Shown here: in pieces, positions 1,171 to 52,355 of the stretch
How positions within the stretch are numbered: position 1 is the first letter of the stretch
How the letters are laid out: every line of letters begins with the position of its first letter
Source of the DNA: a bacterium
GTDB lineage: Bacteria > Patescibacteriota > Minisyncoccia > JACQLN01
Assembly: GCA_030697795.1 (NCBI GenBank)
Contig: JAUYOV010000007.1
Coordinates: 73,810 to 137,809, forward strand
DNA: 64,000 nucleotides
Direction: 5' to 3'
Notes under the pieces: model-generated
The model's database searches: none
Seen by the model: only the letters and a program-made list of their open reading frames with translations
Told to the model about the DNA's origin: nothing
Position numbers and translations under genes: made by a program

Positions 1171-1323
1171 TGCACCATATCGCGTTTCTGACGCGGTTTT
1201 TTGTTTGTTTATCTACGCTTTAGCGTAGGTATAAACCAAACACCCTTCCGAAGCTCCGAGCTTTATCGAGGAGCGAAGGAGGGTATTCCCTACAAATAAC
1301 GTAGGATGATTCTCTAAACTACT

Positions 1324-7588: not shown

Positions 7589-7745
7589 TTTTAAATTTTA
7601 GAGAATTTTTTATTTAATTAAATAACAAGAAACGACTTTATAGCATCATTCTATCACATAGACATAATACAAAACAACAAGCCTGTGGATATTACTGCGT
7701 TAGGAATGACAGCCCTTCCAAAAAGGGCGGTCCTTCCTGAATACT

Positions 7746-9117: not shown

Positions 9118-9127
9118 CTAAGTAATA

Positions 9128-9260
9128 TAAAATATATTTTTAAATTTCCAATTTCTAATATCTAATTACTAATCAAATCCCAATGACTAATGAACAAATA
9201 ACTAAAAAACTTTCTGACATTAGGCGTTTAAGCATTAGACATTGATTAGAAATTGGTAAT
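9128..9260. repeat. Inverted-repeat intergenic element, TCTAAT-unit family (copy 1)
   Basis: Arms aatttccaatttctaatatctaattactaatcaa ... ttgattagaaattggtaatt are reverse complements of each other. Same architecture at 10631, 34508, 36560, 47428, 52253. Confidence 0.7.
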
Positions 9261-9336
9261 TGCTCGCCCTGCGAAGCTTTACTGTGTCCTTCCGAAGCCT
9301 CGTGCGAAGGAGGAGCGGAGTAGGGGAAATTAGGAA

Positions 9337-10630: not shown

Positions 10631-10760
10631 TTGGAAATTACTAATTACCAATTTCTAATTACTAATAAAACTTTAAATGACTAATGACTAAATACTTTTG
10701 GACATTGGGATTTTGGTATTAGACATTGATTAGAAATTAGGTATTAGATATTAGAAATTC
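10631..10760. repeat. Inverted-repeat intergenic element, TCTAAT-unit family (copy 2)
   Basis: ttggaaattactaattaccaatttctaattactaat ... attagacattgattagaaattaggtattagatattagaaatt. Confidence 0.7.
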
Positions 10761-11296
10761 TTTTTAAATAAGAGTCCCCAATGATCGTTCGTTGTAATAA
10801 TTTCTTTATCTAAATTAAAACCAAGCCCTGCTACTATTTGCTGACATTCTGCCTTAGAAAATTTGTAACCGGCTTCTTTTGTGCCAAAAAGAGAGGTTGG
10901 TTCCCAATCTATAACAACCAATTCCCCGCCAATTTTTAAAACCCGGTGAGCTTCTTTTATTATTTCTAACTTTTTTTGGGATTGAAACAAAATATTTGTA
11001 AGCAGTGCCACATCCTGGCTGGAGTCGTTAAGTTTAGAACTGCCCCAAACCTCTAAATCGCCCCTGACATAATTTATATTAAAAAGTCCGCGTGATTGCG
11101 CCGCAGACTTTAGCGTATCTAACTTGCCCTGCAAAACATCTATAGCCGTAACCGAACCGGTATCGCCCACGATCGCCGCAATAAGCAAAGCAAAATAACC
11201 CGAACCAGAACCAAAATCGGCCACATTGTAGCCCGTTTTAATATTTAAACTAGAAATTATAGTGTCTGGATTTAAAAATCCGCCTTGGGGAATCAT
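10751..11296 (-). CDS. Class I SAM-dependent methyltransferase
   Basis: 181 aa. VADFGSGSGYFA motif I, and D/E after a beta-strand (AIDVLQ). Confidence 0.6.
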   Translation of the reverse strand: MIPQGGFLNPDTIISSLNIKTGYNVADFGSGSGYFALLIAAIVGDTGSVTAIDVLQGKLDTLKSAAQSRGLFNINYVRGDLEVWGSSKLNDSSQDVALLTNILFQSQKKLEIIKEAHRVLKIGGELVVIDWEPTSLFGTKEAGYKFSKAECQQIVAGLGFNLDKEIITTNDHWGLLFKKNF

Positions 11297-11366: not shown

Positions 11367-13889
11367 TTATAATGTTGTCGTTGAGCCTATCTGATCGCCA
11401 TCTTTTAGCTTCATCACTCTGACGCCTTGCGTGGCGCGCCCTAAAACAGAAATATCTTTTAAGGGAGTTCGGATTAGCTGGCCTTTTTTAGAAATTACTA
11501 TCAAATCCTCTTGTTCCGGATCAAGAATCTTAGCCGAAACTATTTCGCCTGTTTTGGGTGTAACTTTAGCCGTTTTTATGCCCGAACCAGCTCGCTTTTG
11601 ACGTTTATACAGCTTAACGGGCGTTCTTTTGGCATAACCCTTAGCTAGCACCACCAGCATTTGCGCATCTTTATTTTGCGAACTAATTACATCGGCTCCC
11701 GCAATTAAATCGCCATTTTTTAGCCTCATCGCATTAACACCGCTGGCGTTTCGGCCCATATCGCGAACATCATTTTCGGAAAACTTTATAGCCTGCCCCT
11801 TTTGGGTAACTAAAATAATTTCGTCCTTACCCGAAGTTAACTTAACCCAATCCAGCTCGTCATCTTTACGGAGCTTGATGGCAATTAAACCAGACCGCCT
11901 GACGTTAGCAAAATCTGCAACCTCTGTTTTCTTAATTATACCACTGCGGGTTATCATAACTAAAAACCTGCCAGCCTCGTTTGACGAGATTTTTGATTTC
12001 TTGATGTCGAATTTCACCGGCACAATCGCCGTAATGACTTCTTCTTGAGCAATTTCTAAAAAGTTAACCAAAGCCCTGCCCTTAGAAGTTCTAGTGGCTA
12101 CTGGGATCTCGTGAACTTTAGCCAGAAATACTTTGCCGGTAGAGGTAAAGAATAAAATGCTGTCGTGGGTATTGGCTACAACCAAATTCTGTATAAAATC
12201 TTCTTCAGCTACGGCCGCGCCAATCTTGCCCGAACCGCCCCGTTTTTGCGTGCGATAAGTACCCGGGGGCAAGCGCTTAATAAAGCCATCTCGGCTTAGC
12301 GTAATAATAACTTCTTCGTTTGGAATTAAATCTTCTTCGCTAAATTCGCCAATAGGGTTGGCATAAATTTTAGTGCGGCGTTCACTAGGATAGCGCGTCC
12401 TGACTTCTTTAAATTCTTCTTTAATAACGCCCAAAAGTTTTTTAACATCGTCTAAAATGCTATTTAAATAAGCAATCAGTTTCTTTTTCTCGACGAGTTC
12501 GTCTTCTATTTTCTTTCTTTCTAAACCCGCCAAAGTTTGCAAACGCATTTCCAAAATAGCGGTGGACTGAACTTCGGACAGCTTAAACTTTTTAATTAAA
12601 TTAACGTGAGCCTCTTCGCGAGTTTCTGATTTTCTGATGGTATTAACAACTTCATCTATATGATCCAGCGCTTTAGACAGGCCTTCTAAAATATGTTTTC
12701 TTTCCTCGGCTTTTTTAAGATCAAATCTGGTTCGGCGTTCCACAATAACTTTTCTGTGGGCCAAATAATGCTCTAAAACAGATTTTAGCGATAAAACCTG
12801 TGGTTGAATACCGTCAACCAACGCCAGCATATTTAAGTGAAAAGTTTTTTGAAGATCGGTTAATTTATAAAGCTTATTTAAAACTTTTTGAGGATAAGCG
12901 TCGCCCCTTAACTCAATCATTATCCTAATACCGTCTTTATCGGATTCATCGCGAATATCTTTTATGCCTTCAATCTTTTTTTCTTTTACCAAATCGGCCA
13001 AATGTTCCAACATAGTGGCCTTATTAACTTGGTAAGGAATTTCTTTAATAATTATTTGAAAACCTTTTGCACCCTCGCCCTTCGTAGCCTTGGCGGAGGA
13101 GGGTTTGCCTTCTATAACATCGGCCACACCCCGCACCACCATCGGCCCGCGCCCCGAAGCATAAGCTTGTATAATATCTTTTTTGCCATAAATTGCCCCG
13201 CCAGTTGGAAAATCTGGGCCTTTTACAAACTGCATCAAATCTTCGCCTGTAGCTTTGGGGTTATCGGACAAATAAAGCAAAGCGTCTATAACTTCCACTA
13301 AGTTATGAGGCGGAATGTTGGTGGCCATACCAACAGCAATACCCACCGAACCGTTAAGCAATATGTTGGGAACTTTGGCTGGCAAAACCGAAGGCTCTTC
13401 CCTACTGCCATCATAGGTTTCTTTCCAATTTACAGTTTCTTTATCTATATCTGTAAGCATTTCTTCGGCTACAGTTTCCATACGGCATTCGGTGTAACGA
13501 TAAGCCGCTGGCGCATCGCCATCTATAGAGCCAAAATTGCCCTGGCCATCTACCAATGGATAACGCAACGAAAAATCTTGAGCCATACGCGCGAGAGCAT
13601 CGTAAATGGCGGCATCGCCGTGAGGATGATACTTGCCAATAACGTCGCCCACCACCGTGGCGCATTTTCTATATTTAGCACTGTGGCGCAAGCCGTTTTC
13701 GTGCATGGAGTAAAGAATTCTGCGGTGCACCGGCTTTAAACCATCGCGCACATCCGGCAAAGCGCGCGAAACTATAACGCTCATAGCATAATCTAAATAA
13801 GCGTCCTGCATCTCGTGCGTTATTTCGCGCGCTTGAATTTTTTGTTCTATATTTGTTCCTTCGGAGGCGGCTTGTTTTTTTGATTCCAT
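11367..13889 (-). CDS. gyrA: DNA gyrase subunit A
   Basis: 840 aa. [27 protein letters not shown], active-site region, and C-terminal beta-pinwheel repeats. Confidence 0.95.
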
Positions 13890-14359: not shown

Positions 14360-14971
14360 TTACACTACGTTTAGTAACAAAGTTTTGGTTTCCTCCTGCG
14401 GCAAATCTTTCTTTTTTATATTAAGTTTATTCTGCGGTTCAACATCGGAAGCGCCCATTTCTTTAAAAAATACCGAGGCTTTTTTGCTATCATCGTAACC
14501 TATGGGAATAACAATTCTCGGTTCTATTTGGTTAACTATTTTACTGGCAGTTTCGTTAGAATCATCAGTTGAACCTATATCTATTAGCAAAATATCTATA
14601 TCGGAAAAATTTTCTAACTGCGCATCGGTTAGTTCTTTGTCTAAACCAGCCAAATGGCAAAGTCTTACCCCTTCTACTTCTATAGTATAGGCAATATTTT
14701 CGCCAAAACCGCCAAGCCCCATAACAAAAAAGCCCTTAACATCGTATTCGCCGGGATTATTTATTAAAAAAGAATTTGTTTTGGATGGCACTTTGACCTC
14801 TTGAAGCTGTGACACCAAAACCACATCAGCGCCCCTAGCCGACTTGCCTGCCGACGAGGCAGGCTTTAATTCTTTTTCCAAATCCAAAGAACTGACAACA
14901 AGAGAATTTTCCCCGCTATCAATACCTACGGAGTTCTGACCGTACCAATACAAATTCATGTTTGATAACAC
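14360..14971 (-). CDS. Putative MBL-fold metal-dependent hydrolase (UPF0173-like)
   Basis: 203 aa. Weak resemblance (GEYDVKGFFVMGLGGFGENIAYTIEVEGVRLCHLAGL). Assignment tentative. Confidence 0.4.
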   Translation of the reverse strand: MLSNMNLYWYGQNSVGIDSGENSLVVSSLDLEKELKPASSAGKSARGADVVLVSQLQEVKVPSKTNSFLINNPGEYDVKGFFVMGLGGFGENIAYTIEVEGVRLCHLAGLDKELTDAQLENFSDIDILLIDIGSTDDSNETASKIVNQIEPRIVIPIGYDDSKKASVFFKEMGASDVEPQNKLNIKKKDLPQEETKTLLLNVV

Positions 14972-15157
14972 TAAAACATAAACATAACAAAAGAATATTT
15001 GTTATATTTCGCTTTTCAATTTGCTTATATTAGTGAAAAGCATAACATATCATTATTTTTTTCTCACTATTGACAAATAGATGTTATAGAGTGTATAATT
15101 AAAATATACAGTCAAAGCAAGCACCTGAAACCAAAACAACCCCAAAAGGAGGTAAAT

Positions 15158-15436
15158 ATGAGTCGCGGAAAATGGTACTTTACGTACATATATCGAGACA
15201 CATTTGGAGGCGGCCTCGCTGGTACAACCGAGCATGAGGAAATTCCTCTGAACGCAATTACTGAAGACGAAGCGATCATAGAGGCGAAGGTAATGTTAGA
15301 TAAGAAAGTTGTAGCGGCAAAAGCCTATTGGGAAAAACAAAGAAAGGAATGGGTGAATCCGCCTGCAACTCCATTTGAAGACGGACCTATAAATCCTTAT
15401 GTCGTATATAAAATCCCACTACAATGTCCAGATTGA
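15158..15436 (+). CDS. Hypothetical protein
   Basis: 92 aa. Strong RBS aaaggagg. Terminator follows. Confidence 0.5.
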   Translation: MSRGKWYFTYIYRDTFGGGLAGTTEHEEIPLNAITEDEAIIEAKVMLDKKVVAAKAYWEKQRKEWVNPPATPFEDGPINPYVVYKIPLQCPD

Positions 15437-15461
15437 TCGAAATTCGACTTCAACCACAACC

Positions 15462-15491
15462 CCCCGACGCTAAGCGTCGGGGCTTTTTTTA
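15462..15491 (+). terminator. Rho-independent terminator
   Basis: ccccgacgctaagcgtcgggg + cttttttttatttt. Confidence 0.7.
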
Positions 15492-15518
15492 TTTTGTAAA
15501 TTTAGCTAAGATAACATT

Positions 15519-15953
15519 ATGGTACTGGATATTAAAAAGAATAAACTAAAAATAGAAAAAATCGCCCAGAACCGCAACTTAAAATTTGCGGTGGTTTTTG
15601 GCAGCGCGGCTTCTGGTTTAATGAGGGACTCCAGCGACACCGACATAGCAGTTTTGCAGAAAAACCATATTCCCCTTGATTATAGATCATTCTTAGATAT
15701 CAACTCTGAATTGACTGACGCCTTGGCGCTGGGCTTTAGAAAAATAGACCTAGTGGATCTGGCAACAGCTAATATACTTTTACGTTACGAAGCTACCCAA
15801 AATGGAATCCTGCTTTATGGAGATGAAACTGATTACCAAAATTACCGAACCTTCGCCTTTAAAGACTATATAGACAGCCAATCACTACGAGATCTGGAGT
15901 CATTGATTATAAGAAAACGACAAAGCGCCCTAGCCACTCAACTTAATGTTTAA
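15519..15953 (+). CDS. mntA: MntA-type minimal nucleotidyltransferase (antitoxin of HepT/MNT TA pair)
   Basis: 144 aa. AVVFGSAASGL...SDTDIAVL matches the Pol-beta NTase GS...D.D motif. Overlaps next gene by 8 nt. Confidence 0.6.
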   Translation: MVLDIKKNKLKIEKIAQNRNLKFAVVFGSAASGLMRDSSDTDIAVLQKNHIPLDYRSFLDINSELTDALALGFRKIDLVDLATANILLRYEATQNGILLYGDETDYQNYRTFAFKDYIDSQSLRDLESLIIRKRQSALATQLNV

Positions 15954-16377
15954 AAAAGATCTAGTTCAAAGGAAAATATCTCTTATACAAGACGACTTGA
16001 GCAATCTTGCTCAATTGTCTAGTTTTTCCATTGAAGAAATCGCGGGCGATTTTTTAAAACAAGCCACAGTAGAACGACTTTTAGAGCGAATCATTTCGCG
16101 GGCTATAGACATTAACGAACATCTTATTGCCGAACTGGCAACCGCAAACACTGTGCCGCCCAAAGATTACCGAGAAACATTTTTTAGACTTTCAGATTTA
16201 AACATCTATCCCAAAGAGTTTGCCAAGGAAATCGCCAAAAGCATCGGCACCAGAAATCTTTTAGTTCACGAATACGACAAGATAGATTATGAAAAAGTGT
16301 ACGCCTCTATCGGCGATTGCTTAAAAGACTATCATCAGTATGTTGATTATATTATAAAGTTTTTAGAAAATCGCTAG
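15946..16377 (+). CDS. hepT: HepT-type HEPN-domain toxin (DUF86)
   Basis: 143 aa. RNLLVHEYD matches the Rx4HxY HEPN motif near the C-terminus. Confidence 0.65.
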   Translation: MFKKDLVQRKISLIQDDLSNLAQLSSFSIEEIAGDFLKQATVERLLERIISRAIDINEHLIAELATANTVPPKDYRETFFRLSDLNIYPKEFAKEIAKSIGTRNLLVHEYDKIDYEKVYASIGDCLKDYHQYVDYIIKFLENR

Positions 16378-16396
16378 TTCTAAACCAGCTTTTACC

Positions 16397-16428
16397 CCGC
16401 ACCTTTTTAATCAAAAAAGGTGCGGGAT
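16397..16428. terminator. Bidirectional terminator hairpin (cccgcaccttttt...aaaaaggtgcggg)
   Basis: 13-bp stem, A/T-rich flanks, between convergent HepT and RelE genes. The same stem sequence recurs at 53287-53335. Confidence 0.6.
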
Positions 16429-16704
16429 TTATTTTAGACCCTTATAAACATCTTTGCGGTGACGGATTCGCAATAATATTATGGAATCTTTATTAAATGA
16501 ATAGATTAAACGATGTGTTCCCACTCTAACACGCCATAGATTAGTGCCAATTTTTAATTTTTTAAGTTTAAGCGAAATATCCGTTAGATTTAATTTCAGC
16601 ACAGATAAAACCATCTCGGCTTTGGCAAAAATATCTTTGTTGACTTCGGCTAAGTCTTTTTTAAACTGCGGTGTAGCAAAAATATTCCGCATACAACGAG
16701 CCAA
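16429..16704 (-). CDS. relE: RelE/ParE-family toxin
   Basis: 91 aa. LWRVRVGTHRLIYSFNKDSIILLRIRHRKDVY is the classical RelE/ParE C-terminal signature. Confidence 0.7.
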   Translation of the reverse strand: MARCMRNIFATPQFKKDLAEVNKDIFAKAEMVLSVLKLNLTDISLKLKKLKIGTNLWRVRVGTHRLIYSFNKDSIILLRIRHRKDVYKGLK

Positions 16705-16741
16705 AAGGACCGCCCTTCCTGGAAGGGCGGTCCTTTTTCGA

Positions 16742-16963
16742 TTATTTAAGGTTCTTTAAGGATTTAATTTTCTTAAGCTTCCCGTTTTTAGCTTCTTTAA
16801 CAGACTGTTCTAGCCCTAACAAAAATTCTTGTTTATATTCTCCCAATTCTTCCAGAACCTCCTCTGCTAATTCGGCAACTTCCGAGCCAACATTAAACAA
16901 TCGGCGTATTTTACTGATACCTAGAGGAGTTACTTCCCTATTTTTGATTATAGCCCCATTCAT
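16742..16963 (-). CDS. Putative antitoxin partner of RelE (start uncertain; internal Met of the 116-aa track ORF)
   Basis: Small acidic, helical protein (EVAELAEEVLEELGEYKQEFLLGLEQSVKEAKNGK) immediately upstream of the toxin. The longer N-terminal extension would overlap the rpsA start, so a shorter start was chosen. Confidence 0.35.
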   Translation of the reverse strand: MNGAIIKNREVTPLGISKIRRLFNVGSEVAELAEEVLEELGEYKQEFLLGLEQSVKEAKNGKLKKIKSLKNLK

Positions 16964-17045
16964 AAGTAAGTATATTAGCATATTACTATCATTTTTGACT
17001 ATATTGTCTTTGTCTAGGCGTTCTGTTATAGTTTCTACACAAAAT

Positions 17046-20193: not shown

Positions 20194-20252
20194 AGTTAAA
20201 GTAAGTTCATATGTAAGGGCATTGCCCTTCGTAGCTCCAAAGGAGCGAAGTA

Positions 20253-20329
20253 GGGCGTGTAGCTCAATTGGTTAGAGCACAGAGCTTATACCTCTGCGGT
20301 TCTAGGTTCGAGTCCTAGCACGCCCACCA
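20253..20329 (+). tRNA. tRNA-Ile with anticodon TAT (UAU), CCA encoded
   Basis: GGGCGTGTAGCTCAATTGGTTAGAGCACAGAGCTTATACCTCTGCGGTTCTAGGTTCGAGTCCTAGCACGCCCACCA. Ile-like body (compare E. coli Ile GGGCCTGTAGCTCAG...). Anticodon loop CTTATAC. Confidence 0.75.
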
Positions 20330-21108: not shown

Positions 21109-21200
21109 ATTTTTGTCACCAAAGAAAAACTTGAAATCGTAAAAACTTAAGTTTTAATTTCGGAATATTTAACCAGACTACCAATACCAAACTCACAACT

Positions 21201-21230
21201 CTCATTTTCACGCTCGAGCGTGAAAATGAG
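21201..21230. repeat. 30-nt perfect palindrome ctcattttcacgCTCGAGcgtgaaaatgag (CTCGAG-palindrome family, copy 1)
   Basis: Read directly. Preceded by ccaata and followed by ggaaagtttaa, as is copy 2. Confidence 0.8.
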
Positions 21231-21366
21231 GAAAGTTTAAATCTAAATTAGTCCAATGTTGACTTATAAATTATGTTTTGTTATAAATCTTAAATCGGAA
21301 AAACCGATAATCCCTTAACAGGGAAATTGCAATAACTTAGTCCCTTAAAAGAAAGAGAGTGATACC

Positions 21367-21735: not shown

Positions 21736-21759
21736 TTTAATTAACAAAATCCAATAACT

Positions 21760-21789
21760 CTCATTTTCTCGCTCGAGCGGGAAAATGCG
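21760..21789. repeat. CTCGAG-palindrome family, copy 2 (ctcattttctcgCTCGAGcgggaaaatgcg)
   Basis: Read directly. Stem differs from copy 1 by compensatory changes. Confidence 0.75.
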
Positions 21790-21821
21790 GAAAGTTTAAG
21801 ACTGATAGACAAAATTAAATT

Positions 21822-22388: not shown

Positions 22389-22490
22389 TTTATATTTTTA
22401 TTTATCTTATTATATATAATATTTTTATATAAGATTATTTTATTTATACAACACTTTATACAATATTCTAACCTACTTCCGCTAGACAAT

Positions 22491-22520
22491 CTCATTTTCA
22501 AGCTCGAGCGACAAAATGAG
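22491..22520. repeat. CTCGAG-palindrome family, copy 3 (ctcattttcaagCTCGAGcgacaaaatgag, imperfect)
   Basis: Read directly. Confidence 0.7.
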
Positions 22521-22569
22521 AATAGTTAGAAACGGATGTTTTAATTAATTAGAGTATACACCATATTTT

Positions 22570-23163: not shown

Positions 23164-23201
23164 CAATCTCATAATCACGCTCGAGCGTGATTATGAGATT
23201 G
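23164..23201. repeat. CTCGAG-palindrome family, copy 4 (38-nt perfect palindrome caatctcataatcacgCTCGAGcgtgattatgagattg)
   Basis: Read directly. Confidence 0.8.
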
Positions 23202-23463
23202 AATTTCATTAAAGAAAAAAACAAAAAGAACAAAAAAATGGAAAATGGAATGGAAAATGGTCAGATTGTTATTGGTTTATTTGATTCATTTGGTTTATAG
23301 GCTTATCTCTAAGCTATTTAATATGAAATTATTTAATATTAAATAAAGAGACCAGATATTACAAACAATATCCACATTTGCCAAAAAAGATAATGGCTGT
23401 TAATATTATATAAATAAGTTAAGTACCCACTTGGAACAGTGACGCTGTCCCAGTTGATCTTTC

Positions 23464-26464: not shown

Positions 26465-26552
26465 GCACGAAGCACGAAGCACGAAATCCGAAACATTTTG
26501 AATTTAGAATTTGGGATTTGTTTCGAATTTCGAATTTCGATATTCGAATTTA
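26465..26552. repeat. Inverted-repeat intergenic element, CGAAAT/GCACGAA-unit family (copy 1)
   Basis: gcacgaagcacgaagcacgaaatccgaaaca ... tgtttcgaatttcgaatttcgatattcgaattt. Similar modules at 48786-48879 and 50866-50990. Confidence 0.65.
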
Positions 26553-26621
26553 AGAAAATTGCCTCCAGCTTCTTCAACAACCCAAGAACCTAAAAGTGCT
26601 CCGGCTTACAAAATAAGAACT

Positions 26622-34225: not shown

Positions 34226-34507
34226 AGAAAAACTTAAAAATAAAACTCGCTTACCCCTTAGAGCAGTCAGAAGATTTTCAAAAAAAGATGAAATTTTATA
34301 CCAAATACTAATCGGATATTGACCTTTACTTAACTAATCTGGTTTAGATAACTATTCTAACCCCAAAATAGGTGGGTATTGGCCTAACAAGCTTACTTAA
34401 GCACAAAACCCTGGTGGGCAGGGTTGTAGGTAAATACTAGCTTTTTTGAGAAGTAAGGTCAATTAGGATATTCCACAGACTACAGCCAAAACACAAGGCT
34501 AGGAAAT

Positions 34508-34618
34508 GTCTAATTTCTAATATCTAATCAATGACTAATTCCAAAATGGCTAATTTTAAAATTTGATCATTAGGCATTAGGATTTGATTAGAAATTAGAA
34601 ATTGGTAATTAGAAATTT
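34508..34618. repeat. Inverted-repeat intergenic element, TCTAAT-unit family (copy 3)
   Basis: gtctaatttctaatatctaatcaatgactaatt ... ggatttgattagaaattagaaattggtaattagaaatt. Confidence 0.7.
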
Positions 34619-34643
34619 TATTATGATCTGCTATAATTTTGTG

Positions 34644-36554
34644 ATGTCTAATATTCTTGACTCTCTAAATAAAGAACAGCGCGAAGCGGTAACTACTATA
34701 GATGGCCCTATTTTGATAATTGCGGGCGCAGGAAGCGGAAAAACCAAAGCCCTGACGCACAAAATTGCCTATTTAATAGAACAAGGAATTTCCCCGGAAA
34801 ATATTTTAGCTTTAACTTTTACAAATAAGGCTGCGGGGGAAATGAAAAACCGTATCAATAAACTGCTGACTAATAACTATCCACTACCAACTTTTGTAGG
34901 CACTTTCCATTCTTTTGCGGCCAGAATTTTAAGACGAGAAATAGATAATATTGGTTATGGCAAAAATTTTGTTATATACGACGTAAGCGACGTACTCTCT
35001 CTCTTAAAAGAAATTGTAGCCGAACTCGGCTTAGACCCAGACCAATTTAAAGCCAATGGTATATATTCGGCTATATCGCGCCAAAAAAATGAACTTGTTA
35101 ATGCCACGATTTATGCTGAAAAAGCAGGAAATTTTAGAGAAAAAATAATAGCTAAAGTTTTCGAAAAATACGAAGCGAGATTAAAAGAAGCTAATGCTTT
35201 AGATTTTGATGACTTGCTTTTACTGCTGGTTAAAGTTTTAAAAAATAATCCTGTTATATTAGAAAAATATCAAAACCAGTTTAAATATGTTTTGGTAGAC
35301 GAATACCAAGACACCAACCATGCTCAATACACTTTGTTAAAGATGTTAGCGCAAAAACACAAAAATATTTGTGTGGTGGGCGACGACTGGCAATCGATAT
35401 ACCTGTTTAGAGGATCCGATTTTAGAAATATGCTTAATTTTGAAAAAGATTATCCCGGCACAAAAATAATTTTTTTAGAAGAAAATTATAGAAGTTCTCA
35501 AAATGTTTTGGATGCCGCCCACGCGGTTATAGCCAAAAATGTTTTTAAAACAGAAAAAAAATTATGGACCGAGCGGGGCGGGGGCGAAAAAATTAAAATA
35601 ATCCAAACGAGCAACGAAACAGAGGAGGGGATTTTTGTGACCGAAGAAATTAAAAAAATATTAAGGACGCAATCAGAAATAGCGCGGGATTTAAATGATT
35701 TTGTTGTTCTTTACCGCACCAACGCCCAATCTCGCGCCATAGAAGAAGCCGTTATAAGGGCTGGCTGGCCCTACCGAATGGTGGGTGCTATAAAATTTTA
35801 CGAACGCCGAGAAGTTAAAGATATTATTGCTTACTTGCGATTTATTCAAAACGAAAAAGATTTAATCAGCTTAAAAAGAATTGTTAATGTGCCACCGCGC
35901 GGGATTGGCAAAACCACGCTAAACCAAATACTTTTAGCCGAACATATTTATGTCTTTAAACATACTAAGTTCGAAGGCTTTCTTAATTTAATTAACGAGA
36001 TTAAAAATGAATCGGCTAATAAAAAAGTTTCCGAGTTAATAAAATTTTTATTAGAAAAAATAGATTATAAAAAATATTGTTTGGATGGCACGGCCGAAGG
36101 CGAATCCCGTTGGGAAAATATTTTAGAACTTATAACCGTGGTCACTAAGTTTGATGTTTTAGAAACACCGGATGGGCTTTCTTCTTTTTTAGAAGAAATA
36201 ACTTTAACAACTTCGGCCGACGATATTTCGGAAGAAAACGGCACGCTAAATTTAATGACACTACATTCGGCCAAAGGTTTAGAATTTCCTGTGGTGTTTA
36301 TTATTGGTGCCGAAGAAGGCTTGTTACCACATGCACGAAGCATGTTTGACCAAACCCAAATGGAAGAAGAACGCCGTCTGGCTTACGTGGGCCTAACTCG
36401 GGCTAAAGAAAAGGCCTATTTTGTTTTTACGCGCCGAAGAAGCATATATGGTAAAAGTGAACCCGCCTTGCCTTCACGTTTTTTGGGTGATATACCAGTA
36501 AGATTGGTGGAGTTTGAAGAATACCAAGCAGGAGAAGAGGTGTTGGATATATAA
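34644..36554 (+). CDS. pcrA: UvrD/PcrA/Rep-family ATP-dependent DNA helicase
   Basis: Start at ATG MSNILDSLNKEQREAV; upstream track extension lies in the repeat. Walker A AGAGSGKT and helicase motifs through to C-terminus. Confidence 0.9.
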   Translation: MSNILDSLNKEQREAVTTIDGPILIIAGAGSGKTKALTHKIAYLIEQGISPENILALTFTNKAAGEMKNRINKLLTNNYPLPTFVGTFHSFAARILRREIDNIGYGKNFVIYDVSDVLSLLKEIVAELGLDPDQFKANGIYSAISRQKNELVNATIYAEKAGNFREKIIAKVFEKYEARLKEANALDFDDLLLLLVKVLKNNPVILEKYQNQFKYVLVDEYQDTNHAQYTLLKMLAQKHKNICVVGDDWQSIYLFRGSDFRNMLNFEKDYPGTKIIFLEENYRSSQNVLDAAHAVIAKNVFKTEKKLWTERGGGEKIKIIQTSNETEEGIFVTEEIKKILRTQSEIARDLNDFVVLYRTNAQSRAIEEAVIRAGWPYRMVGAIKFYERREVKDIIAYLRFIQNEKDLISLKRIVNVPPRGIGKTTLNQILLAEHIYVFKHTKFEGFLNLINEIKNESANKKVSELIKFLLEKIDYKKYCLDGTAEGESRWENILELITVVTKFDVLETPDGLSSFLEEITLTTSADDISEENGTLNLMTLHSAKGLEFPVVFIIGAEEGLLPHARSMFDQTQMEEERRLAYVGLTRAKEKAYFVFTRRRSIYGKSEPALPSRFLGDIPVRLVEFEEYQAGEEVLDI

Positions 36555-36559
36555 AAACA

Positions 36560-36682
36560 AATTTCTAATTACTAATATCTAATTTCTAATCAAATCCTAA
36601 GGCCTAATTATCAAACCTTAAAATAGACATTTTAGAATTAGACATTGATTAGATATTAGAAATTGGATATTAGATATTTCAA
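36560..36682. repeat. Inverted-repeat intergenic element, TCTAAT-unit family (copy 4, clearest example)
   Basis: Left arm aaatttctaattactaatatctaatttctaatcaa. Reverse complement of right arm aaatatctaatatccaatttctaatatctaatcaa. About 50-nt unique centre. Confidence 0.75.
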
Positions 36683-36685
36683 AAT

Positions 36686-37564
36686 ATGTTAAAAAGAAAA
36701 AATAAATTGTTATTAGAATCAGCCGACATTCGCCCAATTAAACATATGGGGCAAAACTTCTTAGTTTCCGAAGAAATTATAGAGAAAATAATTTTAGAGG
36801 CAAAGATTAAAACGGGCGAAACTATTTTAGAAGTTGGACCAGGTACGGGCAATTTAACTATGGCGTTATTGGCAACAGGGGCAAAAGTGGTAGCAATAGA
36901 AAAGGATTCTAAATTAGTTCATCTGTTAATTTCTAATTTCCAATTTCTAATTTCTAAAAAAAAATTAAAGGTAATTGAACAAGATATTTTGAGTTTTGAT
37001 GAAATGGCGATCAAATCGCCATATAGAGTAATCGCCAACATTCCCTATTATTTAACGGGCAAGCTGATTCAAAAATTTCTGCTTTCGGCTAATAAACCAT
37101 CGGAATTAATACTTATGGTTCAAAAAGAAGTGGGCGAGAGGATAACGGCGCAACCACCCAAAGCTAATTTTCTTTCTTCGCTAGTGCAGTTTCTGGCCGA
37201 AACCAAAATTTTATTTAAAGTAGGTAAAGAAAACTTCTGGCCTCAACCTAAAGTAGATTCAGCCTTGATTAAACTAACCCCGTACCAATATACACCGAGC
37301 ATACGATCGTATGCTCGTGATACGGTTGGAATCAATATCAATAATAATGAGGAATTTATAGAGTTTTTGAAGATGGTTTTTAGGCAACCGCGGCAGACGC
37401 TTTTTAATAATCTAAGAAAATATCTAGTTAGCACGAGTCAGCGATCGCCAGCTCATGCTAAATTAGATTCAGTCTTTCAAGAGCTTGGATTTGATAAAAA
37501 AATACGAGCTCAAAACTTGGGCAAGGAAGACCTTGTCAATCTTTTTAGCTTATTAGGATATTAG
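36686..37564 (+). CDS. rsmA: 16S rRNA (adenine1518/1519-N6)-dimethyltransferase RsmA/KsgA
   Basis: 292 aa. ILEVGPGTGNLT (SAM motif I) and NIPYYLTGKL match KsgA. Contains an internal ttaatttctaatttccaatttctaatttctaaaaaaaaa stretch coding LISNFQFLISKKK. Confidence 0.8.
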   Translation: MLKRKNKLLLESADIRPIKHMGQNFLVSEEIIEKIILEAKIKTGETILEVGPGTGNLTMALLATGAKVVAIEKDSKLVHLLISNFQFLISKKKLKVIEQDILSFDEMAIKSPYRVIANIPYYLTGKLIQKFLLSANKPSELILMVQKEVGERITAQPPKANFLSSLVQFLAETKILFKVGKENFWPQPKVDSALIKLTPYQYTPSIRSYARDTVGININNNEEFIEFLKMVFRQPRQTLFNNLRKYLVSTSQRSPAHAKLDSVFQELGFDKKIRAQNLGKEDLVNLFSLLGY

Positions 37565-43400: not shown

Positions 43401-44087
43401 ATGAACAGCCAACAACTAACATTAGACCAAATAGAACAACTAAACCAAGTTTCGGACCCAGTGGCCCGAAGACGCTTTTCTGTTCTGTTTCAGTTGCCCC
43501 AAGACTTGCAAACTGCTTTTGAAAGCGAGCAAACCGAAAATAGCGTTTGGGATATTGCTAAGGTAAAATATGATTTAGTCGATAGCGACGTCAGCAAAGT
43601 TTCACGAATAATCGGCTTAATATTTTTGGGTGAACTGCCCATTAAAAACTTTATTGCCGAATTAAAAAATAAATTAAATGTAGATATTCAAAAAGCCCAA
43701 GCCATTGCTCAAGATATTAACCAAGCCATCTTCCAGCCGGTCAGAACAAGTTTGATGCAAGTGCATGGGATAACCTCTACCGAAAATCCGAAATCCTCCT
43801 CCTTCGCTAAAGCTACGAAGGACAAGCAAATACCCCTACTCCGCCCACCCTTCGCCAGAGGCTACGGCGTGGCACAGCAACCTGTTAAACTTACACCACC
43901 GGCCTATCAACCTAGTTACGATAATGCCCAAAAAAGAAGAGATGAGGTGTTAAGTAAAATTAGACAGCAACCCCCTCCAGCTAAGCCCGCCTCGTTTTAT
44001 TTTTCTCGCAATATAAGACCAAATAACCTGAAGAAAAGTAAAATGACGAAGAGAGTTAATAATAAGTACGATGGATTTTTTAGTTAA
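43401..44087 (+). CDS. Hypothetical protein (T4SS-like cluster); contains in-frame GC-rich palindromic motif
   Basis: 228 aa. Internal segment aaatcctcctccttcgctaaagctacgaagg (43794-43821) coding SSSFAKATKD, see findings. Confidence 0.45.
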   Translation: MNSQQLTLDQIEQLNQVSDPVARRRFSVLFQLPQDLQTAFESEQTENSVWDIAKVKYDLVDSDVSKVSRIIGLIFLGELPIKNFIAELKNKLNVDIQKAQAIAQDINQAIFQPVRTSLMQVHGITSTENPKSSSFAKATKDKQIPLLRPPFARGYGVAQQPVKLTPPAYQPSYDNAQKRRDEVLSKIRQQPPPAKPASFYFSRNIRPNNLKKSKMTKRVNNKYDGFFS

Positions 44088-44159: not shown

Positions 44160-44519
44160 ATGAACCAAATTACAAACAAGAATAATTACGACCTAGAAGA
44201 AAGGACGTTAAAATTTGCCCAAAGAGTAAATGAATATGTCCGTAAGTTATCAAGGACAATAACTAACATAGAGAATGGCAAACAATTAGTGAGATCAGGT
44301 GGATCAGTAGGAGCAAACTATATAGAAGCTAACGAATCCCTTGGTAGAAAAGACTTTATGATGAGAATTAAGATATCCAAAAAAGAAACAAAAGAAAGTA
44401 GATACTGGCTAATACTAACAGAGCCGAATAAAGACAACCTACTTGAAAAAGAAAGTTTGATTAAGGAATCTACGGAGCTTATGAAAATATTTGGTTCAAT
44501 CCTAGAAAAATCAAAATAG
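44160..44519 (+). CDS. Four-helix-bundle protein (family often found in 23S rRNA intervening sequences)
   Basis: 119 aa. ...TLKFAQRVNEYVRKLSRTITNIENGKQLVRSGGSVGANYIEANESLGRKDFMMRIKISKKETKESRYWLILTE matches the four-helix-bundle (TIGR02436-type) signature (QLxRS..SIGANI.EA...S.KDF...I..KE..ET.YWL). Confidence 0.7.
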   Translation: MNQITNKNNYDLEERTLKFAQRVNEYVRKLSRTITNIENGKQLVRSGGSVGANYIEANESLGRKDFMMRIKISKKETKESRYWLILTEPNKDNLLEKESLIKESTELMKIFGSILEKSK

Positions 44520-44530
44520 GTTATTGGTAA

Positions 44531-44575
44531 ATTGTGATTTATAATTTGTTTAGGATTTAGATATTAGAATTTAGT
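44531..44575. repeat. Right arm of inverted-repeat element carrying four-helix-bundle gene
   Basis: aattgtgatttataatttgtttaggatttagatattagaatttag. Confidence 0.6.
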
Positions 44576-44591
44576 ATTTCACACACATATT

Positions 44592-44870: not shown

Positions 44871-44892
44871 TAAACAATCAAATTATAAATAC

Positions 44893-44985
44893 TAAATCCG
44901 AAACTCTAAACAAACTCCAAATGCCAATTTACCAAATTAGAATTTGTGATTTAAATATTGTTTAGGATTTAGATATTAGAATTTA
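44893..44985. repeat. 'Empty' copy of the four-helix-bundle-carrying inverted-repeat element (left + right arms with about 25-nt gene remnant)
   Basis: ctaaatccgaaactctaaacaaac | tccaaATGccaatttaccaaattag | aatttgtgatttaaatattgtttaggatttagatattagaatttag. Arms near-identical to those at 44123 and 44531. Confidence 0.6.
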
Positions 44986-44991
44986 GAGATT

Positions 44992-45660
44992 ATGGCAAAT
45001 ACTTCTTCAACCCACCAACTTATAGAAACCAAAGAAATTAAAGATGGTCTTGTTGTTTTAAAAAATGGGGGATTAAGAGCTATTTTGATGGTATCTTCCA
45101 TAAACTTTGCTTTAAAATCCAGCGAAGAACAAGAAGCCATAATCGACCGCTTTCAGGGTTTTATAAATTCCATAGATTTTCCTGTTCAAATTTTGGTTCA
45201 ATCCAGAAAACTGGATATTTCTGAATATTTAAAATTTCTAAACGAAAGAATCGGCATACAAACCAACGAGCTCTTAAAAATACAGACTTCTGAATATATT
45301 AATTTTATACAAGAATTAATTAAGCTAACCAATGTTATGTCTAAGTTCTTTTATGTGATAATTCCCCTAAGTACGGTGGCCGTTCTAGCAACAGGGTTTT
45401 TTTCTAAGTTTTTTTCTAAAAACAAAAAAGGCGTTCAAGATCAAAAAGACTTAAACTTTGAAACACAAAAAAATACAATTCAACAAAGAGTAGACCAAGT
45501 TACCAGTTTGTTAAGTTCTATGGGTTTAAAAGCGATACCCTTAGAAAAAGAAGCTTTAATCGAGCTTTTGTATACATCGTATAACCCCGGCAGCGAAGTT
45601 AAGCAAAAGAATATGGAGGCCTTAATTGCCACAGGGGATGAAGCTAAAAAATCAGGATAA
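44992..45660 (+). CDS. virB4: VirB4/TrbE/PrgJ-like ATPase, N-terminal fragment (gene interrupted at A6 run)
   Basis: 222 aa. ...IKDGLVVLKNGGLRAILMVSSINFALKSSEEQEAIIDRFQGFINSIDFPVQILVQSRKLDISEYL is the typical VirB4 N-terminal domain. Confidence 0.75.
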   Translation: MANTSSTHQLIETKEIKDGLVVLKNGGLRAILMVSSINFALKSSEEQEAIIDRFQGFINSIDFPVQILVQSRKLDISEYLKFLNERIGIQTNELLKIQTSEYINFIQELIKLTNVMSKFFYVIIPLSTVAVLATGFFSKFFSKNKKGVQDQKDLNFETQKNTIQQRVDQVTSLLSSMGLKAIPLEKEALIELLYTSYNPGSEVKQKNMEALIATGDEAKKSG

Positions 45661-45665
45661 AATAT

Positions 45666-47426
45666 ATGGAACCGAAAAACCAACAAATCGCCTCGGCCGG
45701 CACCCTAGAAGATCTTTTAGCCCCGCCGGCTTTACAGGTCAATCCTTCTAATTTGCAGATAGGCGAGAAATTTTCTAGAACAATATTTGTGGCTAATTAC
45801 CCTAGATTTTTGAGCGTGGGCTGGTTTTCGCCTATTATTAACTTAGATAAAATTTTTGATGTTTCTTTATTTATTCAACCCTCCGAAACTGGTCCTGTTT
45901 TAAAAAAACTAACCAAAAAAACAGCGCAGATCGGCGCGCAGATGTCGGAAAAAGAAGAGGGGGGTTTTATACGCGATCCCATGCTAGAAACAGCTTACCA
46001 AGATTTAGAATCTTTGCGCGATAAACTGCAACAAGGCACTGAAAGGTTTTTTCGGGCCGGCTTATATCTTACTTTTTATGCTAGTTCCGTAAAAGAACTG
46101 GATGATGTTGAAAGCAGAGTAAATACGATATTAGAATCAAAATTAATATATTCTAAAGTTGCGGTGTTCCAGCAACAAGAAGGCTATACCTCTACCCTGC
46201 CTTTAAATTTAGATAAGCTTCAGGTTTATAATAGCTTAAACACTGGCCCGCTTTCTTCTTTCTTTCCTTTTGTTTCAGCCGATCTTACCTCCAACAAAGG
46301 TGTGCTTTATGGCATAAACAGGCACAATAACAGCCTTATACTTTTTGATAGATTCTCTTTAGAAAACGCCAACACGGTTGTTTTTGCTAAATCCGGTTCG
46401 GGCAAAAGCTATACTGTTAAATTAGAGGTTTTACGTTCCTTAATGCTAGGCACCGATGTAATAATTATAGACCCAGAAAGCGAGTATAAATACTTAAACG
46501 ATGTAGTGGGCGGAACTTTTGTAAATATTTCTTTAACTTCTGCTAACCATATAAATCCGTTTGATTTAACTATACCCAGCGAAGATGAAAGCCCAGCCGA
46601 AGTTTTAAAAGCTAATATTATAGAGCTGACCGGCTTATTAAAAGTAATGTTGGGCCAGTTAACGCCCGAAGAAGATTCAATTATAGACAAAGCCTTAACC
46701 GAAACCTATGCTTCGCGCGATATCAGCATAAATTCGGATTGGCGGGGCAAACAGGTACCTTTAATGGGCGACCTGCATACCGTATTAAAAAACATGCAGG
46801 GCGCGGAAAAATTAGCCATTCGCATAGAAAAATATGTGACAGGCACATTCTCTGGCTTTTTAAATCAACCCACCAATGTGGCCTTAAACAATAACTTAGT
46901 TGTTTTTTCTATAAGAGATCTGGAACCAGAACTTCGCCCAGTGGCTATGTATATTTTATTGCACTATGTTTGGAACTTAATAAGAGCGCAAAGAAAGAAA
47001 AGAATAATGGTGGTGGACGAGGCCTGGTGGATGATGCAACATCAAGAAGCCGGCGCGTTTTTATTTAGCATTGCCAAAAGATGCCGTAAATATTATTTGG
47101 GGCTTACCACTATAACCCAAGACGTGGAAGATTTTATGAAATCGCAATACGGCAAGCCCATTGTAACCAATTCCGCCCTGCAAATATTGCTAAAGCAATC
47201 GCCGGCGGCCATAGACACGGTGGCTCAAACATTTAATTTAACCGATGAAGAAAAGTTTTTACTTTTAGAGTCCAGCGTGGGCGAAGGCATATTTTTAGCC
47301 GGTTTAAAGCGCGCGGCTATAAAAGTGGTGGCTTCTTATACCGAAGATCAAGTTATTACATCCGACCCAGCGCAATTATTGGAAATAGAAGCGGCTAAGA
47401 AAGAACTAGCCGAAGCACAGAAATGA
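45666..47426 (+). CDS. virB4: VirB4/TrbE/PrgJ-like ATPase, C-terminal ATPase fragment
   Basis: 586 aa. Walker A FAKSGSGKS, Walker B/DEAW (IMVVDEAWWMM), and the conserved motifs of T4SS VirB4 ATPases. Confidence 0.85.
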   Translation: MEPKNQQIASAGTLEDLLAPPALQVNPSNLQIGEKFSRTIFVANYPRFLSVGWFSPIINLDKIFDVSLFIQPSETGPVLKKLTKKTAQIGAQMSEKEEGGFIRDPMLETAYQDLESLRDKLQQGTERFFRAGLYLTFYASSVKELDDVESRVNTILESKLIYSKVAVFQQQEGYTSTLPLNLDKLQVYNSLNTGPLSSFFPFVSADLTSNKGVLYGINRHNNSLILFDRFSLENANTVVFAKSGSGKSYTVKLEVLRSLMLGTDVIIIDPESEYKYLNDVVGGTFVNISLTSANHINPFDLTIPSEDESPAEVLKANIIELTGLLKVMLGQLTPEEDSIIDKALTETYASRDISINSDWRGKQVPLMGDLHTVLKNMQGAEKLAIRIEKYVTGTFSGFLNQPTNVALNNNLVVFSIRDLEPELRPVAMYILLHYVWNLIRAQRKKRIMVVDEAWWMMQHQEAGAFLFSIAKRCRKYYLGLTTITQDVEDFMKSQYGKPIVTNSALQILLKQSPAAIDTVAQTFNLTDEEKFLLLESSVGEGIFLAGLKRAAIKVVASYTEDQVITSDPAQLLEIEAAKKELAEAQK

Positions 47427-47427
47427 C

Positions 47428-47538
47428 AAATTCCTAATTTCTAATCAATTTCTAATGCTTAAATGCCTAATTTCAGAACTTAGCCATTAGACATTTTGGT
47501 TTGATTAGATATTAGAAATTAGATATTAGACATTTTAA
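47428..47538. repeat. Inverted-repeat intergenic element, TCTAAT-unit family (copy 5)
   Basis: caaattcctaatttctaatcaatttctaatgcttaaatgcctaatt ... gtttgattagatattagaaattagatattagacatttt. Confidence 0.7.
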
Positions 47539-47539
47539 A

Positions 47540-47941
47540 ATGGATGAACAAAACGAATTAGAAGCCGAGGGCTTAACAGAAGAAGAAATTGAGGGCGTTA
47601 AAAACGGCGATATTAAAGAACCAGTGTTTCCAACTATGATTTTTGCCGCCGCTTTAACTAAAGATACTTTAGATATAATAGAGGCGTTGTGGGTTGTTAC
47701 TTTTGGTATAATAGGCACAATAACAAATACATTTATGGTGCCTCTAGTTTATACTTATGTGAATACTAACTTAAACCTATCCAGAAGATATATTTATAAA
47801 AGACTCATCGGCAAAGCTATAGCGGAATTTGTGCCATATTTATCGGCTGTCTCGTTTTGGTCGTTGTTTGTTTGGAAAGCTCATCAAAGAGAAAAAAAGA
47901 AAATGGAAAAGGTGCTAAGCATTATGAATAAATCATCTTAG
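47540..47941 (+). CDS. Hypothetical small membrane protein (acidic N-terminus, 2-3 TM)
   Basis: 133 aa. Immediately downstream of virB4. Confidence 0.4.
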   Translation: MDEQNELEAEGLTEEEIEGVKNGDIKEPVFPTMIFAAALTKDTLDIIEALWVVTFGIIGTITNTFMVPLVYTYVNTNLNLSRRYIYKRLIGKAIAEFVPYLSAVSFWSLFVWKAHQREKKKMEKVLSIMNKSS

Positions 47942-50859: not shown

Positions 50860-50865
50860 AGAAAA

Positions 50866-52249: not shown

Positions 52250-52252
52250 TTT

Positions 52253-52352: not shown

Positions 52353-52355
52353 TTG

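Follow-up and report, generated by a model that had tools for sequence, protein, structure and literature searches.

The window analysed here is a 64-kb stretch of DNA (G+C content 38%) from a bacterium of the Patescibacteriota, and all coordinates are given on it. Its gyrA gene (11367-13889, minus strand) encodes a protein of 840 residues that is 100% identical to the homologue P0001, 'DNA gyrase subunit A', with PF00521 and PF03989. Within gyrA, in frame and on the same strand at 13074-13103, lies a 30-nt unit, CCCTCCTCCGCCAAGGCTACGAAGGGCGAG, which encodes residues P263-E272 and is here called copy D. A sequence-only reading of the window had described related GC-rich palindromes at five sites, and had suggested that the one in gyrA is an in-frame insertion of about 27 nt. 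All five of the sequences that it quoted are present at the positions it gave, and they belong to one DNA repeat family. Loci from other genomes are given L-numbers and protein homologues P-numbers; the loci syntenic with the window are L001-L006, around gyrA, and L148 and L149, around an open reading frame (ORF) at 43401-44087.

After P0001, the next relatives of this GyrA come from metagenome-assembled genomes of Patescibacteria/Parcubacteria. When the 60 best homologues are aligned, the seven nearest (P0002-P0008, 89-92% identity) read EGK-GSKGFQ at the site and are ten residues shorter, which confirms the insertion. The protein is shorter by 9-11 residues at this site in solved GyrA structures, from B. 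subtilis, S. aureus, E. coli and other species, in agreement with what had been said of the E. coli protein. At the DNA level, L001 reads AAA/GGA where the window reads AAA/CCCTCCTCCGCCAAGGCTACGAAGGGCGAG/GGT, a clean insertion of 30 nt. The insertion is thus lineage-specific and in frame, as had been suggested, and its length is 30 nt rather than 27. Comparison of the filled junction (AAA/CCCTCC...GGCGAG/GGT) with the empty one (AAA/GGA) reveals zero duplicated bases, and so no target-site duplication at gyrA of the kind that marks a miniature inverted-repeat transposable element (MITE).

The 30-nt unit is absent from gyrA in L001 and L006, and L002-L005 have a diverged unit at the same codon position, with a further 63 nt inside the loop of the L002 copy. 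Similar inserts, of the form PxSAKAxxGE, are found at this position in several clades, down to 68-73% identity. On a neighbour-joining tree of 41 GyrA sequences, the filled alleles fall in six separate places, each beside empty sisters, and at least six gains or at least seven seamless losses are required at this one codon position.

The position of the insert in the protein was analysed using an AlphaFold2 model of residues 1-520, which has a mean predicted local distance difference test score (pLDDT) of 67, rising to 80-92 in the domain that holds the insert. The model places P263-E272 at the tip of a β-hairpin, between strands 255-261 and 276-283, and pLDDT is below 50 only for residues 264-273. 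Given this low-confidence loop between two confident strands, the insert is predicted to be a surface-loop extension. The β-hairpin probably belongs to the 'tower' domain of GyrA59 structures.

Recurrence of the insert at one position in several clades, in a surface loop that is tolerant, could be explained by a single ancient insertion or a native loop, kept as neutral or useful and repeatedly lost, its resemblance to the other copies being that of a favoured low-complexity peptide. We consider this very improbable. The window lineage is nested among seven empty-site relatives. The element is identical at 29/30 positions between the window and L002 and at 26/30 between the window and L003, whereas third-codon identity in the flanks is 0.58 and 0.45, respectively; an element so much better conserved than the flanking synonymous sites implies either that its DNA sequence is constrained or that the insertions are recent and independent. 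The SKG codons are missing from the filled alleles of P0011-P0014 and retained in their empty sisters, which therefore cannot be excision products of those alleles. The same DNA is read in other frames elsewhere, as described below, so that the likeness is at the DNA level. Finally, the covariance model R1 (see below), which was seeded almost entirely from other phyla, scores the gyrA copy at 48.3 bits (13069-13107).

Import of the unit by homologous recombination was considered and rejected, because the flanks of the window insertion resemble those of the empty L001 and not those of the filled L002. Deletion between GAAGG repeats was likewise rejected as a source of the empty alleles, because the distance of 29 nt between these repeats would not preserve the frame. 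Other insertions occur in this protein family: the homologues P0031, P0032, P0069 and P0080 contain inteins (PF14890, PF14528) and are about 1200 residues long, and P0036 has a different insert of 16 residues (AHSTKAQGDPERSRGV) a few residues upstream of the site studied here.

The other copies in the window are found both between and within genes. Copy C (CCCTACTTCGC-TCCTTTGGA-GCTACGAAGGGCAA; 20222-20255, minus strand) matches the family pattern and scores 38.3 bits with R1 at 20216-20259. It abuts the 5' end of a tRNA-Ile gene with the anticodon UAU (20253-20329, plus strand; identified by ARAGORN, and by Rfam at 73.8 bits), overlapping its first 3 nt (GGG). The palindromes had been described as lying near tRNAs, which is true of copy C and, strictly, of that copy only. 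Copy C is missing in L001. Its orthologue in L004 (3692-3739) has a different yet complementary loop stem, TCGGC..GCCGA, and appears to abut the same tRNA-Ile, although no tRNA scan was run on L004. It may be added that a UAU anticodon is an uncommon way to read AUA, without the lysidine modification of a CAU tRNA.

Copies E and F are both in ORF 43401-44087 (plus strand), which encodes a hypothetical protein with a hypervariable linker. The neighbouring genes in L148 and L149 (TrbL_3, PrgI, TraC-like, VirB4-like ATPase and T4SS_pilin) confirm that this ORF belongs to a type IV secretion-like cluster. Copy E is a 30-nt unit, TCCTCC-TTCGC-TAAA-GCTAC-GAAGGA-CAAG (43797-43826, plus strand; R1 39.1 bits, E=4e-7, at 43793-43831), and encodes SSFAKATKDK in frame. 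It is the copy previously noted for the peptide SSSFAKATKD, and it has no counterpart at this position among the 40 closest of 57 homologues. Copy F (43833-43877, plus strand) is a composite of a half element, CCCCTACTCCGC, and the unit CCACCC-TTCGC-CAGAG-GCTAC-GGCGTGG-CACAG, whose core at 43849-43867 scores 16.3 bits with R1. It is also in frame, encoding PLLRPPFARGYGVAQ, and decayed versions of it are present in the relatives L148 and L149. The linkers of homologous proteins contain other element-derived peptides, such as PPLRQGFVGQ and SAKGYGVTQQGSAGQA. The linker in this family serves as a dumping ground for such units in different homologues, and copy F is an old one, which is decaying in relatives.

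Copy B lies in the SBP-pilin gene spacer, and is nested. The outer element (CCCTACTCCGC ... AAAGCTTCGCAGGGCGAGCAA; 9260-9325, minus strand) scores 27.2 bits with R1 (E=2e-4, with a 35-nt insertion in the loop). Its loop is interrupted by an inner unit, read from the sequence as TCCTCC-TTCGC-ACGAG-GCTTC-GGAAGGA (9287-9314, minus strand), with an outer stem that pairs at 5/6 positions. The spacer is 219 nt long in the window versus about 57 nt, and element-free, in L001. The region 9279-9331 is 75% complementary over 53 nt to 43828-43880, which is copy F (repeat pair I19); the nested composite therefore recurs 34 kb away, and has itself been duplicated. Copy A (CCCTCCTTCGC-TCCTCGATAAAGCTCGGA-GCTTCGGAAGGG; 1244-1283, minus strand; R1 15.2 bits) is intergenic, upstream of ORF 1324-1866. 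L002 has a full orthologue of it, at 14178, and in L001 its place is taken by a version of only 22 nt.

By R1, there are thus 6-7 copies over the 64 kb of the window. In the 22 kb of syntenic sequence from the closest relative, R1 has zero matches at E<=1, and only the 22-nt remnant at site A is present. The family is therefore multi-copy in this genome, and at least three of its copies, namely D in gyrA, C in the tRNA-Ile leader and E in ORF 43401-44087, have no counterpart in the nearest relatives. These three have in common the 10-mer GCTACGAAGG, found three times in the window, where the pan-bacterial consensus has GCTTCGGAGGG. Such a genome-specific signature points to copying within the genome.

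The simple palindrome CCTTC..GAAGG is not significantly over-represented in the window, with four matches against 1.28 expected and 6 of 100 shuffles reaching four, and family-level tests were therefore used instead. When lined up, the window copies read CCCTMCTYCGC-(loop)-GCTWCGRAGGGCRAG, and the pattern CCCTMCTYCGC-N(1-30)-GCTWCGNRGGGCRA has two matches in the window against 0.00 expected. At the family level the evidence is decisive. That reading had named two outcomes that would count against it, a palindrome-free version of the segment in relatives and a lack of over-representation, and neither was found. The covariance model R1 was seeded with 88 copies, of which 84 are from other genomes, two from the window and two from gyrA in L003 and L005. 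It finds all five of the sites listed earlier, including 43793-43831 and 9260-9325, which were not in the seed, and adds a sixth, copy F.

The canonical unit is 30 nt long, with the architecture (6-nt stem)-TTCGC-(YAAR or small hairpin)-GCTWC-(complementary stem)-CARG and the cross-genome consensus CCCTCCTTCGC-YAAR-GCTTCGGAGGGCAAGC. The consensus is predicted to fold with TTC opposite TWC in a 3x3 internal loop, which separates an outer stem of 6 bp from a short inner stem closed by a small apical loop. A G-C and a C-G pair form the inner stem in the fold, and a third pair, Y-R, is supported by covariation. The apical loop is of 4 nt in the predicted fold, and would be reduced to the dinucleotide AA by formation of the Y-R pair. 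In 62 of the 122 matches listed the loop is exactly 4 nt long, most often TAAA or CAAG, the pattern itself leaving its length free. The loop-closing pair is UA in 41 cases, CG in 39, GC in two and UG in two, and is unpaired in three. Among the matches listed, the unit is followed by G (70-78%) and then by C, and the 5' flank is unconserved.

A core-only search of the gathered sequence, from which anything that the original pattern could bias was left out, gave 186 cores. Of these, 30 have perfect 6/6 complementary outer stems, against 1.3 expected from shuffling. The 30 comprise at least 17 stem sequences, for example CCCGCC/GGCGGG, CCCTGC/GCAGGG, TCCTGC/GCAGGA, CCATAC/GTATGG and TGTTCC/GGAACA, and the tails that follow these covarying stems are CAAG, CAGG or CGAG. 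The stems thus covary strongly: core and tail are conserved in sequence, and all that is required of the outer stem is that it pairs. This is what would be expected if a factor recognises the core in the context of a hairpin.

The sequence-only reading had thought of the phenomenon as one of this genome in particular, which is not the case. The strict pattern was scanned over one genome per GTDB species, and matched at least 120 genome stretches from many phyla. Among the matches listed there are 80 titled records. Patescibacteria (Saccharibacteria, Parcubacteria/Paceibacterota and others) account for 31 and an unclassified 'bacterium' for seven, and the remaining 42 include Bacteroidota, Planctomycetota, the Planctomycetes-Verrucomicrobia-Chlamydiae (PVC) group, Verrucomicrobiota, Kiritimatiellae, Lentisphaerae, Proteobacteria and Acidobacteria; none of the 80 names Rickettsiales. 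The G+C content of the listed stretches ranges from 0.31 to 0.72. Multiple copies are also found elsewhere, with several within 8 kb in L044, inverted doublets in L055 and L145 and a tandem arrangement in L098. Copies nested in the loops of other copies occur in L002 gyrA and L040, as well as in copy B. Only partial, marginal matches were obtained from PLSDB (7.3 Gb), indicating that the element is not plasmid-borne, and with only 21 stretches on viral contigs, viruses are not the main reservoir. A group of related IMG/VR contigs (L131, L134, L135, L137, L143, L145 and L146; G+C 0.65-0.69) have 2-5 copies each, with differing outer stems; L145, a phage contig, encodes tailed-phage proteins, with tail-collar and lysozyme genes. 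No description of the element was found in the literature by topic, DNA words or peptide words, in a search that did not cover subscription-only papers, and the family is apparently undescribed.

Many copies are within genes. Among the matches listed, 32 of the 68 copies (about 47%) in genomes with G+C of 0.5 or below are inside ORFs of at least 90 aa, 23 of them in the sense and nine in the antisense direction. Proteins that contain the element in frame elsewhere include IleRS, LeuRS, GluRS, ThrRS, RpoC, TopA, LigA, RNase J, MutS2 and a copper ATPase. All six frames are represented in the peptides from long ORFs among these matches: PSFAKASEGK is the commonest, and others are (S/T)LLRQG(F/Y)GGQA, PPSPRLRRAS, LPSEASAKEG, LALRSFSEGG and CPPKPWRRR. 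Within the window, gyrA reads CCC TCC TCC GCC (P S S A) and copy F reads CC CTA CTC CGC C (L L R), giving PSSAKATKG in gyrA and PLLRPPFARGYG at 43833-43877. Since the same DNA is read in different frames, this is an element at the DNA level and not a protein motif. Read from the consensus, a unit with the CAAG loop has zero stop codons in six frames, and the TAAA loop closes two frames.

Some of these features would suit a functional RNA or DNA hairpin, namely a transcript-end, processing or stability signal for a conserved cellular factor, with the coding copies being accidental or having a role at the RNA level. A structure that is recognised is expected to combine stems that covary freely with a conserved internal loop (3x3) and tail, as is seen here, and the strand with the purine loop (GAA/GAA) folds 1.3-1.8 kcal/mol better than its complement. 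About 10 copies, out of roughly 120 or more matches, lie exactly at the mature end of a tRNA or transfer-messenger RNA (tmRNA) gene, overlapping tRNA ends by 3-7 nt and mostly in one orientation relative to the RNA. They abut the 5' end of tRNA-Ile in the window, L046 and L062 (the latter two inside rRNA operons), the 5' end of tRNA-Lys or tRNA-Glu in L102, L116 and L120, and the 3' end of tmRNA or tRNA in L018, L019, L060, L064 and L044. A terminator-like T run follows the hairpin in L019 and L044, the copies in the L145 phage often begin directly after stop codons, and loop extensions often end in UUCG-type loops. Of the window copies, D runs on into GGTGCAAAAGG, E into CAAATACCCC and C into the tRNA, and none of these three has the directly adjoining T run of an intrinsic terminator.

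We nevertheless regard a functional hairpin as an unlikely explanation of the family. Rfam 15 identifies only tRNAs in the window at the gathering threshold, and nothing over the element in eight loci at E <= 0.1. In low-GC genomes, ORFs contain nearly half of the copies listed, which run in either orientation and are read in several frames. Close relatives differ in whether they have the element in gyrA, in the leader of tRNA-Ile and in the SBP-pilin spacer, from which it follows that no site needs it. A two-nucleotide apical loop (AA, closed by Y-R) is also awkward for an RNA. The abutment of tRNA and tmRNA genes may partly be tolerance, in that an insertion into the tiny spacers of a compact genome will abut its neighbours anyway, and the orientation bias leaves room for an RNA-end role at those sites. 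A function at particular sites is in any case compatible, through co-option, with a repeat that proliferates.

An origin without any enzyme also has to be weighed, in which template switching or slippage during replication takes a hairpin that exists at another locus, or in a tandem or circular intermediate, and copies it into sites of microhomology. At gyrA the target GAAGGCAAA resembles the 3' end of the element, GAAGGGCGAG, creating a 6-nt quasi-repeat, GGCRAR, exactly 30 nt apart (GGCAAA in the target and GGCGAG at the element end). The 3-7 nt overlaps with tRNA ends are as microhomology predicts, the loops contain slippage-like expansions of the CTTCG unit and partial duplications, and no transposase was found among window-specific ORFs or by clustering of neighbours. 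This origin leaves unexplained why core and tail are conserved across phyla with variable stems; the flanking quasi-repeat is weak in other lineages, and there is little preference for sequence in the upstream flanks. We keep template switching at sites of microhomology as a live alternative, of low probability.

We think it probable that the segment in gyrA belongs, as one of its copies, to a short hairpin DNA repeat that is non-autonomous and proliferating. Its copies would spread by copy-and-paste or excise-and-paste of a single-stranded hairpin, and a trans-acting enzyme, specific for both structure and sequence, would recognise the conserved core and tail. An enzyme of the Y1/HUH 'peel-and-paste' type would be the best-fitting mobiliser, because there is no target-site duplication, empty sites are seamless, and the same gyrA codon position has been used repeatedly. 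Coding copies would persist because 30 nt is ten codons, the CAAG-loop form is free of stops, and the commonest frame gives a flexible hydrophilic decapeptide like PSFAKASEGK; in GyrA, such a peptide would only lengthen the tip of a surface β-hairpin. Non-coding copies beside tRNA or tmRNA genes may have been co-opted as RNA end hairpins.

Several observations weigh against a proliferating repeat. Transposase, HUH, GIY-YIG and reverse transcriptase genes are absent among the window-specific ORFs and the precomputed annotation of the syntenic loci. No protein family recurs beside the element in an all-against-all clustering of 3128 ORFs from 141 loci, in which the top clusters are housekeeping proteins. 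There is no strong target motif, the sole signal being a depletion of C at position -1. Polymorphism between filled and empty sites within one population was not found, a metagenome scan for a second filled gyrA allele in the lineage of the window giving one contig, with an empty allele. The neighbour-joining tree is crude, which makes the counts of gains and losses approximate. The gyrA copy is a weak, degraded hairpin, with folding z-scores of -0.15 to -0.72. Conservation of sequence across phyla is unusual for elements like the repetitive extragenic palindromic (REP) sequences, and could reflect a conserved cellular function.

With regard to the enzyme, no REP-associated tyrosine transposase (RAYT) was seen in 64 kb of this genome, stretches of up to 8 kb of others, and precomputed Pfam lists. 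In four loci of different phyla, a small GIY-YIG gene is found no more than 300 nt from the element (L019 6248-6596, L116 148-378, L089 1104-1325 and L032 6922-7167), which is a lead and not a finding. In L019, the second half of the hairpin and the T run are duplicated about 190 nt downstream, just before the GIY-YIG gene.

A wider reading, which we put forward tentatively as something less than an even chance, is that there is one phylum-crossing family of coding-neutral 30-nt hairpins, mobilised or maintained by a factor common to distant bacteria. Essential proteins, among them gyrase, RNA polymerase, topoisomerase I, DNA ligase and the aminoacyl-tRNA synthetases, would repeatedly have received from it peptides of one decapeptide family (PSFAKASEGK, LLRQGFGGQ and related). 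This, if true, would be a near-universal and previously unrecognised class of bacterial mobile DNA, and a general source of loop insertions in proteins, especially in Patescibacteria.

Other repeats are also present in the window. Many intergenic spacers contain AT-rich arrays with a 7-nt period (ATTAGAA/ATTTCTA or AATTTCG), in the form of long inverted repeats (families D1-D6 and I1-I25). They are located at 9123-9262, 10631-10765, 26491-26557, 34503-34625, 36554-36702, 44512-44579, 44880-44996, 47420-47542, 48786-48863, 50863-50985 and 52252-52380, and could be long AT-rich hairpins at gene boundaries; in one, the arms 34505-34557 and 34558-34610 have zero gap. Copy B lies within one such array, and similar arrays flank genes in L002 and L004. 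In relatives, small genes for 23S_rRNA_IVP / Avd-like four-helix bundles come and go between conserved genes (L002 7013-7384, L004 14570-14944, L148 3903-4262). One of the sites is precisely the SBP-pilin spacer, which in the window is occupied by copy B and AT-rich repeats instead.

A GC-rich hairpin of 21 nt, CCTGCCTCGTCGGCAGGCAAG, unrelated to the 30-nt family, is in frame at 14843-14863 (minus strand) in ORF 14360-14971 (Lactamase_B_3 family). It encodes PASSAGK, has a perfect 6-bp stem (CCTGCC/GGCAGG) and is missing in L001. Also missing in L001 is a block of about 2 kb (14972-17020), which contains a toxin-antitoxin pair of nucleotidyltransferase (Polbeta/MNT) and HepT RNase at 15519-16377 and ends with a terminator-like hairpin at 16706-16734 (GGACCGCCCTTCCTGGAAGGGCGGTCC). 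A 30-nt intergenic hairpin at 7708-7737 (GGACCGCCCTTTTTGGAAGGGCTGTC), again missing in L001, resembles the latter. A 44-nt palindromic repeat (D7, core TCATTTTCACGCTCGAGCGTGAAAATGA) occurs four times (21197-21240, 21756-21799, 22487-22530 and 23164-23207), at a spacing of 560-730 nt. These repeats bracket small genes, namely a 100-aa ORF, a PaaX_M/Cas2-like protein and a UPF0102 endonuclease-like protein, in an arrangement that looks cassette-like.

Palindromic repeats in frame in essential genes have so far been treated as a curiosity of Rickettsia. Here the unit is much smaller, occurs in many phyla, and is concentrated in the reduced genomes of Patescibacteria. If the interpretation as a proliferating repeat is correct, it accounts for a class of short insertions, and of low-complexity peptides that recur, in proteins predicted from metagenomic sequence, provides a marker of very recent genome change in uncultured lineages, and probably adds to contig breaks and annotation errors. 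It also poses the question of what recognises the TTCGC..GCTWC hairpin core in Saccharibacteria, Bacteroidota and Planctomycetota alike. With the covariance model R1, a genome-wide census becomes feasible, as does a search by gene association for the enzyme that mobilises the element.

It remains to compare the element with known systems, beginning with the Rickettsia palindromic elements (RPEs) that the sequence-only reading had in mind. Members of the RPE group are recognised by a length of about 100-150 bp and a conserved peptide of about 30-50 aa. Like the element, RPEs are interspersed palindromic repeats of a small, host-dependent genome, inserted in frame in unrelated housekeeping genes. 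They are a feature of Rickettsia, about 150 bp long and in ten families, which add a peptide to the products of the genes that they enter and are also found in non-coding DNA (PMC10969869). Compared by description, the element differs from them in length (30 nt and 10 aa), in architecture and in being spread over many phyla rather than one genus. The likeness to RPEs that had been suggested therefore stands as an analogy of behaviour, from which size, taxon and architecture set the element apart.

A MITE is derived from an identifiable insertion sequence (IS) element, and is as a rule a longer repeat, with inverted repeats at its ends and a duplication of its target site. Intragenic MITEs (ERIC, BOX, Correia and Nezha-type) are non-autonomous and can fuse in frame with host ORFs (PMC10969869), and in both respects the element is like them. 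The element is shorter, and has no target-site duplication at its gyrA junctions. Its stems are inverted repeats that vary freely between copies, and no parent IS was found, in a search that did not extend to whole genomes.

A close analogue is provided by the GC clusters of yeast mitochondria (e.g. GC42) and related hairpin elements of fungi or algae. These clusters are GC-rich palindromes that merge and nest and have spread horizontally by a mechanism that is unresolved (PMC4478555). The element resembles them in its length of about 30-50 nt, in being scattered through an AT-richer genome, in its sporadic presence between close relatives, in the merging and nesting of copies and in horizontal spread. 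GC clusters are organellar and have a putative AG target-site duplication (PMC4478555), for which there is no counterpart here, and their sequences are unrelated.

There are also similarities to REP sequences and REPINs, which are likewise imperfect palindromes of 20-40 nt in many copies, with a short conserved tail beside the hairpin. With REP/RAYT systems and IS200/IS605 the element further shares occasional inverted doublets (as in L055 and L145), a lack of target-site duplication and seamless empty sites. The properties of REP, RAYT and IS200/IS605 used here are reportedly those of the work of Nunvar in 2010, of Bertels and Rainey in 2011, and of Ton-Hoang and Chandler. REPs are extragenic and species-specific in sequence, and begin with GTAG or GTGG. 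In place of this 5' head, the element has a conserved single-stranded tail, CARG(YC), on the 3' side of the hairpin; a CCCTAC/GTAGGG stem subtype exists, and GTAG is present only inside that stem. Unlike REPs, the element is often intragenic, with the 32 of 68 listed copies in low-GC genomes inside ORFs, and it has one core common to several phyla. The architecture is thus REP-like, but the element departs from REPs in its head and in its location. Taken together with the hairpin and conserved tail, the absence of target-site duplication, the seamless empty sites and the repeated use of one site, the analogy suggests that the element may be closer to the Y1/HUH and REP/RAYT systems than to classical MITEs.

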